The notes beneath the pieces were generated by a model that had not been told where the DNA came from, did no database searches, and saw only the letters and a list, made by a program, of their open reading frames with translations. The translations under genes and the position numbers were made by a program. Positions 6,616 through 7,205 of a DNA stretch of 13,479 nucleotides are shown here, piece after piece; within the stretch, counting starts at the first letter, position 1, and each line of letters begins with the position of its first letter. The stretch is from Octopus sinensis (lineage: Eukaryota). The stretch covers positions 1 to 13,479 of the forward strand of contig NW_021826129.1 in assembly GCF_006345805.1 (NCBI RefSeq), read 5' to 3'.

Positions 6616-6682
<67 letters not shown>

Positions 6683-6769
6683 ATAATATTATAGAGAACA
6701 AAACCACTATTTTGCAAATCAAACAGGAAAGACTTAATCAATACATAAAAAATTTTAATAAAAGTAAAT

Positions 6770-6823
6770 AAATCGCCACTACAATTGTTTCCTGTCTTCA
6801 AATGACATTCATCAGGTGGATTT
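6770..6823 (-). ncRNA. Minimal type I hammerhead ribozyme motif (mirror copy)
   Basis: Reverse complement reads aaatCCAC CTGATGA a TGTC atttgaa GACA g GAAAC aatt GTA GTGG cgattt, identical to the plus copy except one extra T in loop II. Confidence 0.8.
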
Positions 6824-6954
6824 CATATCTTCTATTCAATTTTAAAGTTATGAAGTCATAGTTATAAAGTCATTAGTAAAGTCATATAAGTCATATAGGA
6901 AGTCATAGTTTTAAAGTTATGACTTCATAACTTTAAAATTGAATAGAAGATATG

Positions 6955-7007
6955 AAATCCACCTGATGAATGTCATTGAAGACAGGAAACAATTGTAGTG
7001 GCGATTT
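6955..7007 (+). ncRNA. Minimal type I hammerhead ribozyme motif
   Basis: aaat-CCAC CTGATGA a TGTC attgaa GACA g GAAAC aatt GTA^ GTGG cg attt. Core CUGAUGA (6963-6969) and GAAAC (6986-6990), stem I CCAC/GTGG extended by aaat/attt, stem II TGTC/GACA, palindromic stem III ACAATTGT, predicted GUA cleavage after 6997. A-G apposition at the base of stem II is non-canonical. Confidence 0.8.
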
Positions 7008-7205
7008 ATTTACTTTATATAAAATTTTTTATGTTGATTAAGTCTTTCCTTGTTTGATTGCAAAATAGTGATTTTGTCTCTAATAATATTATATAATATT
7101 TTACTATAAAATTGGATTCAATCCTAATCTGATTTTTCCCTGTAAATTTGGTTTATTCCCTAATATTTATTATTATTTATATATATATAATATATATATA
7201 TTATA

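Follow-up and report, generated by a model that had tools for sequence, protein, structure and literature searches.

Paired hammerhead-bearing repeats between (TA)n tracts in Octopus sinensis: a probable head-to-head insertion of a Penelope-like element

An inverted repeat between two TA tracts

The window analyzed here is a stretch of 13,479 nt from Octopus sinensis (GCF_006345805.1, contig NW_021826129.1, positions 1-13,479, forward strand). It contains a non-coding inverted repeat whose arms each carry a hammerhead ribozyme motif, on opposite strands, with a short structured spacer between the arms and a TA microsatellite on either side. The features of the locus, in order of position, are as follows.

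6575-6672, no strand: left (TA)n tract, the likely insertion target, running straight into the AT-rich outer end of the left arm
6673-6860, minus strand: left arm, a short pLTR-like copy with its 5' end inward and its 3' end outward, without a tail; 178 of 190 columns identical to the right arm
6776-6819, minus strand: minimal type I hammerhead motif (descriptor match) with a 7-nt loop II, predicted cut at 6780/6779
6861-6917, no strand: asymmetric spacer of 57 bp made of short re-copies of the arm's inner end, likely a join scar
6909-6938, no strand: 30-bp palindrome with a 14-bp stem and a 2-nt loop at the 5' end of the right arm, the predicted product of a snap-back
6918-7099, plus strand: right arm, a pLTR-like copy sharing its inner end with the left arm
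6959-7001, plus strand: minimal type I hammerhead motif (descriptor match) with its core at 6963-6969, predicted cut at 6997/6998
7100-7176, plus strand: one-sided extension absent from the left arm, a putative tail of a Penelope-like element (PLE) that could be flanking DNA
7163-7267, no strand: right (TA)n tract, as delimited by TRF

The anatomy of the locus, the motif, the make-up of the spacer and the computed folds are direct observations on this DNA. A first-pass annotation had described an inverted repeat with arms of about 185 bp, and alignment bears this out: the right arm (6918-7099, 182 nt) and the reverse-complemented left arm (6673-6860, 188 nt) are identical in 178 of 190 columns, the mismatches comprising 2 substitutions and 8 indel events (5 in homopolymers, 2 of a TA dinucleotide, and 1 other). 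The innermost 58 nt of both arms show no difference at all and the inner ends match exactly; the outer ends are unequal and form the most divergent part. In a window-wide comparison, the only further copy of an arm was the inverted one. Folded as RNA, positions 6680-7170 reach −248.6 kcal/mol (z = −29.6), a stability equalled by none of 100 shuffled sequences. The arms' ratio of 2 substitutions to 8 indels stands against a total of 52 substitutions to 5 indels for four other pairs of repeats in the window. It is more likely that the arm indels reflect base-call error in near-identical arms, and in that case the insertion would be young.

The locus is non-coding, as had been annotated, in that no ORF of at least 60 amino acids spans the arms. 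The ATG that follows the hammerhead core, tried as an ORF start like that of the anole element Poseidon, was rejected because it opens only 24 and 9 codons before a stop. The sole ORF reported here (7087-7275) is made up of the extension and the TA tract, not of the arms, and no RT or GIY-YIG ORF was found within the 13,479-nt window.

Both sides of the repeat are occupied by (TA)n, with tracts at 6575-6693 and 7163-7267, in agreement with the annotation. The left array as called by TRF (6575-6693, period 2) reaches past the point where arm homology stops, at 6673. TA-type tracts (13 in number) make up 23% of the window, so that a location between two such tracts says little by itself; the TA context carries weight only through the fact that each outer end of the repeat passes directly into one. 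With both flanks being microsatellite, no target duplication is readable. The statement that one arm is about 75 bp longer also holds, the right side having 63-77 additional bases (7100 to 7162 or 7176) that are unique in the window and contain a predicted 11-bp stem-loop at 7108-7136. Compared with the published PLE tail of 30-40 nt, these 63-77 nt are long, and their origin from the element is putative, since they may be flank.

Hammerhead motifs in both arms

The motif in each arm is built from a 4-bp stem I, the core CUGAUGA, a stem II of 4 bp, GAAA, a palindrome 8 nt long, and the cut triplet GUA. In the plus-strand motif, loop II is 6 nt long, GAAA lies at 6986-6989, and the palindrome at 6989-6996. 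The cuts predicted at 6997/6998 on the plus strand and at 6780/6779 on the minus strand place the two hammerheads facing outward, as first noted, with the cut site 102 nt from the 3' end common to both arms. A descriptor for minimal type I hammerheads, composed after the motif had been seen, found exactly 2 matches in the window, with cores at 6963 (plus) and 6815 (minus), and no match in either of two 16-Mb first-order Markov backgrounds (32 Mb in total). Features of PLE minimal hammerheads that are present include the conserved core, the extra base after position 9, and a palindromic 15.2-16.2 region. The assignment of both motifs to the PLE-type minimal hammerhead with a palindromic stem III is supported, and the absence of matches from the 32-Mb background places the motif far beyond chance.

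The description of these hammerheads as complete is correct for the core, where every nucleotide is there, but it does not extend to the base of stem II or to the fold. Positions 10.1 and 11.1 form an A-G apposition in both arms, and the usual G10.1-C11.1 pair, given as a hallmark of PLE minimal hammerheads by Cervera and De la Pena 2014 (PMC4209133), is absent. In both monomers, the computed hammerhead fold lies 1.5-2 kcal/mol above the minimum (−4.2 versus −5.7 and −3.6 versus −5.6 kcal/mol); the palindrome as a self-duplex is computed at −6.4 kcal/mol. A mismatch at this position has precedents. In the Hydra-clade hammerhead rows of File S2 of Craig et al. 2021 (PMC8557442), we counted a one-base mismatch at the stem II base in 15 of 26 (14 U-U and 1 U-C), the rest being 7 G-C, 3 G-U, and 1 other, with A-G in none of the 26. 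The axolotl hammerhead HHR_Amex2, described in PMC7229834, cleaves despite a U-U mismatch at the base of helix II, and does so better as a dimer. By these precedents, a mismatch at this position is not fatal in kind.

The first-pass annotation had also proposed a search with the Rfam hammerhead models, and this gave no support: none of the 8 matches over 6690-7165 was a hammerhead, even at E <= 10, and over the whole window there was no hammerhead among the matches listed (150 of 172). The Rfam matches to miRNA families were matches to the hairpin or to microsatellite sequence and fell under the gathering score.

In a read-through RNA, the sense hammerhead was expected to be sequestered by its own antisense copy, and the predicted folds agree, with a mean predicted probability of pairing between hammerhead bases and the upstream antisense arm of 0.999 for the plus-strand motif and 0.976 for the minus-strand motif. 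A read-through transcript would, on this model, lock the sense hammerhead in a long duplex. As the two motifs lie on opposite strands, an in-cis dimer is impossible, which was likewise anticipated. The hammerheads are best seen as passengers that would cleave weakly if at all.

A structured spacer at the junction

The 57-bp spacer between the arms (6861-6917) was not described in the earlier annotation. It is asymmetric, and 44 of 61 nt (6862-6922) parse as copies of 6-14 nt from the inner 40 nt of the left arm, a parse score equalled by 2 of 10,000 shuffles. One 7-mer occurs at 6867, 6879, 6888, and 6900 in addition to the arm's own copy at 6853, and only once elsewhere on the plus strand of the window. 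A 12-mer at 6852-6863 recurs at 6899-6910, where the second copy overlaps the palindrome by two T. This repeated 12-mer contains three letters that are found at the end of the left arm and are absent from the right arm. Because these letters exist only at the left arm's end, two separate DNA ends are favored as the source of the junction. The palindrome itself (6909-6938) is self-complementary at 28 of 30 positions.

The inner ends of the arms, at 6918 and 6860, correspond to the same position of the element, 80 nt upstream of the cut site. Ribozyme cleavage was tried as the maker of the arms' 5' ends and was rejected, since ends that fall 80 nt upstream of the cut are not cleavage products. 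As a whole, the spacer looks like the scar of a one-off join. Comparable junctions have been described in two other settings. Reiterated short templated inserts copied from one flank are a signature of polymerase theta (PMC5068794), and the short overlapping inserts seen here resemble them. In work on R2 proteins (PMC11371274), cDNA 3' ends snap back and prime on themselves at retroelement 5' junctions, which is the kind of self-priming that the palindrome suggests. The present case differs from the polymerase theta and R2 cases in that both of the joined ends are copies of the same element end.

Comparison with known Penelope-like elements

The opposite-strand twin layout is already known for PLEs. 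In Schistosoma, dual minimal hammerheads on opposite strands have been described 100-700 bp apart (PMC4209133), and with the hammerheads of that study those of the octopus locus have in common the opposite-strand pairing, the extra base after position 9, the short stem I, and the palindromic stem III. They differ in the missing G10.1-C11.1 pair and in stem II, which is 4 bp here and 7-8 bp in the Schistosoma families. As laid out in the text of PMC8557442, a typical PLE insertion has an inverted 5'-truncated copy and a one-sided tail of 30-40 bp. Almost all Hydra-clade families in that account target (TA)n, and the proteins of the clade are characterized by RWK and DKT and by the lack of CCHH. 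In one element, Penelope-13_HM, an attached copy, inverted and truncated at its 5' end, gives hammerheads on both strands near both ends. The octopus locus resembles Penelope-13_HM and Hydra-clade PLEs in its (TA)n preference, in a type I hammerhead near the 3' end, and in a stem III that opens with A-C and closes with G-U, as in all 26 of the Hydra rows in File S2. The single mismatch at the foot of stem II agrees with the clade only in kind, since here it is A-G, the combination missing from those 26 rows. The stem III region is 8 nt long here compared with 9-10 nt in the Hydra rows, and, unlike in Penelope-13_HM and the Hydra elements, no ORF is left and both copies are about 185 bp. Hydra-1_Obim was considered as the source and set aside: by eye its hammerhead and its 3' end are different, and a 12-nt motif from the window has no match in the PMC8557442 supplement.

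A further parallel in overall form comes from Penelope elements of Adineta vaga (Arkhipova et al. 2013, PMC3846280), where inverted pLTRs of about 180-220 bp are arranged head-to-head and a junction palindrome and a one-sided tail are found as well. That paper gives head-to-head as the commonest inverted PLE form and reports palindromes of 18-38 bp at pLTR 5' ends. The pLTRs of Adineta vaga flank an ORF or captured DNA, whereas those of the octopus flank only a re-copied spacer, and the 8-10-bp target duplications of the former have no readable counterpart here. The biochemistry of the purified anole PLE protein, as presented in PMC11167929, adds an enzymatic framework. Acting on both strands, this protein cuts the DNA and extends its ends; it favors AT-rich DNA and initiates at two sites within the RNA that delimit the tail. 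It uses uncleaved RNA, so that hammerhead cleavage is not needed, and the ribozyme cleaves only with the protein. The first start past the ribozyme cut lies at 85-92 nt in the anole PLE and would correspond to 102 nt here, where the second would lie at 165-179 nt.

Similarities also extend to the metazoan non-LTR retrozymes (Cervera and De la Pena 2020, PMC7229834), which are non-coding, a few hundred bases long, and equipped with a type I hammerhead. These retrozymes form direct tandem arrays, from which circular RNA is released, whereas the octopus pair is inverted, and because of this inversion one transcript has only one sense ribozyme. A retrozyme was rejected as a candidate, no direct tandem array of 150-450-bp hammerhead repeats being present in the window.

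Origin of the inverted pair

The hallmarks of a PLE insertion found at this locus are a hammerhead near the 3' end, head-to-head copies with their 3' ends outward, a junction palindrome, and TA tracts at both outer ends. Because this layout is, in the literature, a routine by-product of PLE integration, a single dead insertion is the default reading. We consider it likely, with a probability of roughly 0.7, that the two near-identical head-to-head copies are a single dead insertion of a PLE pLTR, probably of the Hydra type. Several observations count against this reading. The two cDNAs would have ended within 1-3 nt of each other, which is not the pattern of random truncation; the G10.1-C11.1 pair is missing, A-G occurs in 0 of 26 Hydra rows of File S2, and stem III has 8 rather than 9-10 nt. 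The extension also exceeds the published tail in length, the window has neither an RT nor a GIY-YIG ORF, and the pattern scans described below gave no second copy. The retroelement origin and TA association proposed in the first-pass annotation are supported. Its further proposal of a non-autonomous mobile element is supported only with respect to retroelement origin; the foldback as a mobile unit is less likely, the layout being a routine integration by-product.

An alternative that we regard as improbable is a separate non-autonomous family, mobilized in trans by a PLE and consisting either of the foldback itself or of a short RNA whose 5' end is fixed and which inserts as a foldback every time. 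An inner end common to both arms is what a discrete short template should give, pLTRs on their own are described as mobilizable in trans (PMC3846280), and animal retrozymes have been argued to derive from PLE pLTRs (bioRxiv 10.64898/2026.07.22.740005). The same common end, however, would be obtained from a pLTR copied to the 5' end of a transcript, the spacer resembles a one-off repair scar, and the non-LTR retrozymes described in PMC7229834 are direct tandem arrays, of which there is no tandem copy here.

More doubtful is a scheme with the insertion of a single PLE cDNA, from which the second arm was then copied as DNA, either by snap-back or in a later template switch, until an AT-rich stretch annealed to the TA tract and ended the copying. 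Such a single RT event would account for both the identical inner ends and the missing tail, and a palindrome does lie at the fold point. Self-priming has been proposed for PLE inverted repeats (PMC3846280), and snap-back has been seen with R2 proteins (PMC11371274). The scheme is opposed by the letters that the left arm's end and one spacer copy hold and the right arm lacks, which point to a second donor end, and by the ability of a PLE protein to extend both strands in vitro (PMC11167929).

It is very unlikely that the locus really has one arm and that sequencing or assembly created the inversion. The substitution-to-indel ratio of 2:8, set against 52:5 in the four other repeat pairs, does point to consensus error, and an assembly can misjoin in microsatellites such as those at both ends. 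Yet base-call error in hairpin DNA accounts for the indels without a false hairpin, the unique flanks beyond the TA tracts are not mirrored between the two sides, and a read foldback yields neither a one-sided extension nor an asymmetric templated spacer. Least credible of all is a MITE or foldback DNA transposon that has a hammerhead-like string in its terminal inverted repeats by chance or capture: the locus is short and non-coding with long inverted repeats in a TA context, but its outer ends are unequal and least similar while its inner ends are exact, the hammerhead motif has no chance match in 32 Mb, and no TA duplication is readable at the right arm's end.

A possible course of integration

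We infer the enzymes and the order of events, like the PLE origin and the clade, from the sequence together with PLE precedents. In a PLE insertion of this kind, the element's GIY-YIG endonuclease would first cut both strands of the (TA)n tract. With uncleaved element RNA as template, the element RT would then extend the two ends, one from each of two start sites that lie about 100 and 165-180 nt downstream of the ribozyme cut; because the cDNAs started at different sites, only one arm would have a tail. Both cDNAs would stop about 80 nt upstream of the cut, likely at the RNA 5' end. The right cDNA end may next have folded back and added 9 nt, and may then have used short microhomology to prime several times on the end of the left cDNA before the two were joined. 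Because theta-like inserts (PMC5068794) and R2 snap-back (PMC11371274) both have precedents, there is more than one candidate for the joining enzyme.

Searches for relatives and other features of the window

Pattern scans returned 0 matches and 1 match in metagenomes, 0 in viral contigs, and 0 in prokaryote genomes, and are uninformative for an animal repeat because these collections are mostly prokaryotic or viral. The lone metagenome match shares only a 14-nt pattern. It lies on an unrelated contig (L001, 125-166, minus strand) and is a type I hammerhead-like motif whose stem III is the same 8-nt palindrome and whose closing pair is G-C. In a word search of sequencing runs, none of the 24 runs listed contained half of the words (top share 0.20) and no RNA run was among those listed, a result that is not evidence on copies or expression. 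Literature searches on hammerhead ribozymes in octopus and on ribozymes and Penelope elements in cephalopods turned up no description of the arm family beyond Craig et al.

Several other repeats occur in the window. A 580-bp segment bounded by TA tracts (11418-11997) contains a decayed minimal hammerhead at 11490-11514 on the minus strand, with two core mismatches and a stem II with a G-C closing pair, and is likely an older remnant of a second PLE family. Two fragments at 1316-1432 and 7660-7876, related to each other (85.7% identity over 49 nt) and oppositely oriented, each abut a TA tract and represent another TA-anchored repeat family, possibly PLE ends. Copies of a SINE-like repeat are found at 9990-10485, 13350-13479, and 1426-1469 (89% over 130 nt and 91% over 44 nt), one copy being split by a TA tract; these presumably resemble Octopus repeats. 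A full-text search with a motif from the window retrieved no paper, and none of four motifs occurred in the supplementary file of a paper on O. vulgaris repeats. A 36-bp inverted repeat, 94% identical, at 12384-12419 and 12811-12846, about 390 bp apart, could be the ends of a MITE. The remaining features are a diverged direct duplication at 1733-1878 and 1946-2089 (73% over 146 nt) and a (TGA)n trinucleotide array of 87 copies at 4167-4427 that would read as poly-Asp in one frame and has no signs of a gene.

Implications for Penelope-type integration

The locus is a clean example of a known PLE insertion layout. What is new is one repeat family, not described before, whose hammerhead has an A-G variant at the foot of stem II. 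A more speculative account of the spacer, which we think unlikely, is that the telomerase-related RT itself re-copied an end segment of 7-12 nt in a telomere-like manner and so sewed together two complete pLTR cDNAs, in a family that routinely writes self-silencing hairpins. If this were true, the RT-made spacer would be a footprint of the unexplained last step in Penelope-type integration, and self-silencing hairpins in a microsatellite-rich genome would feed dsRNA editing and small-RNA pathways.

The junction is the most useful part of the locus, since its history can be read from the equal 5' ends, from a snap-back of 9 nt, and from some five short re-copies. According to PMC8557442 and PMC11167929, it is unresolved how a PLE insertion is finished once the first strand has been made, and junctions of this sort could be used to tell twin priming apart from self-priming and to distinguish host end-joining from repeats made by the RT.
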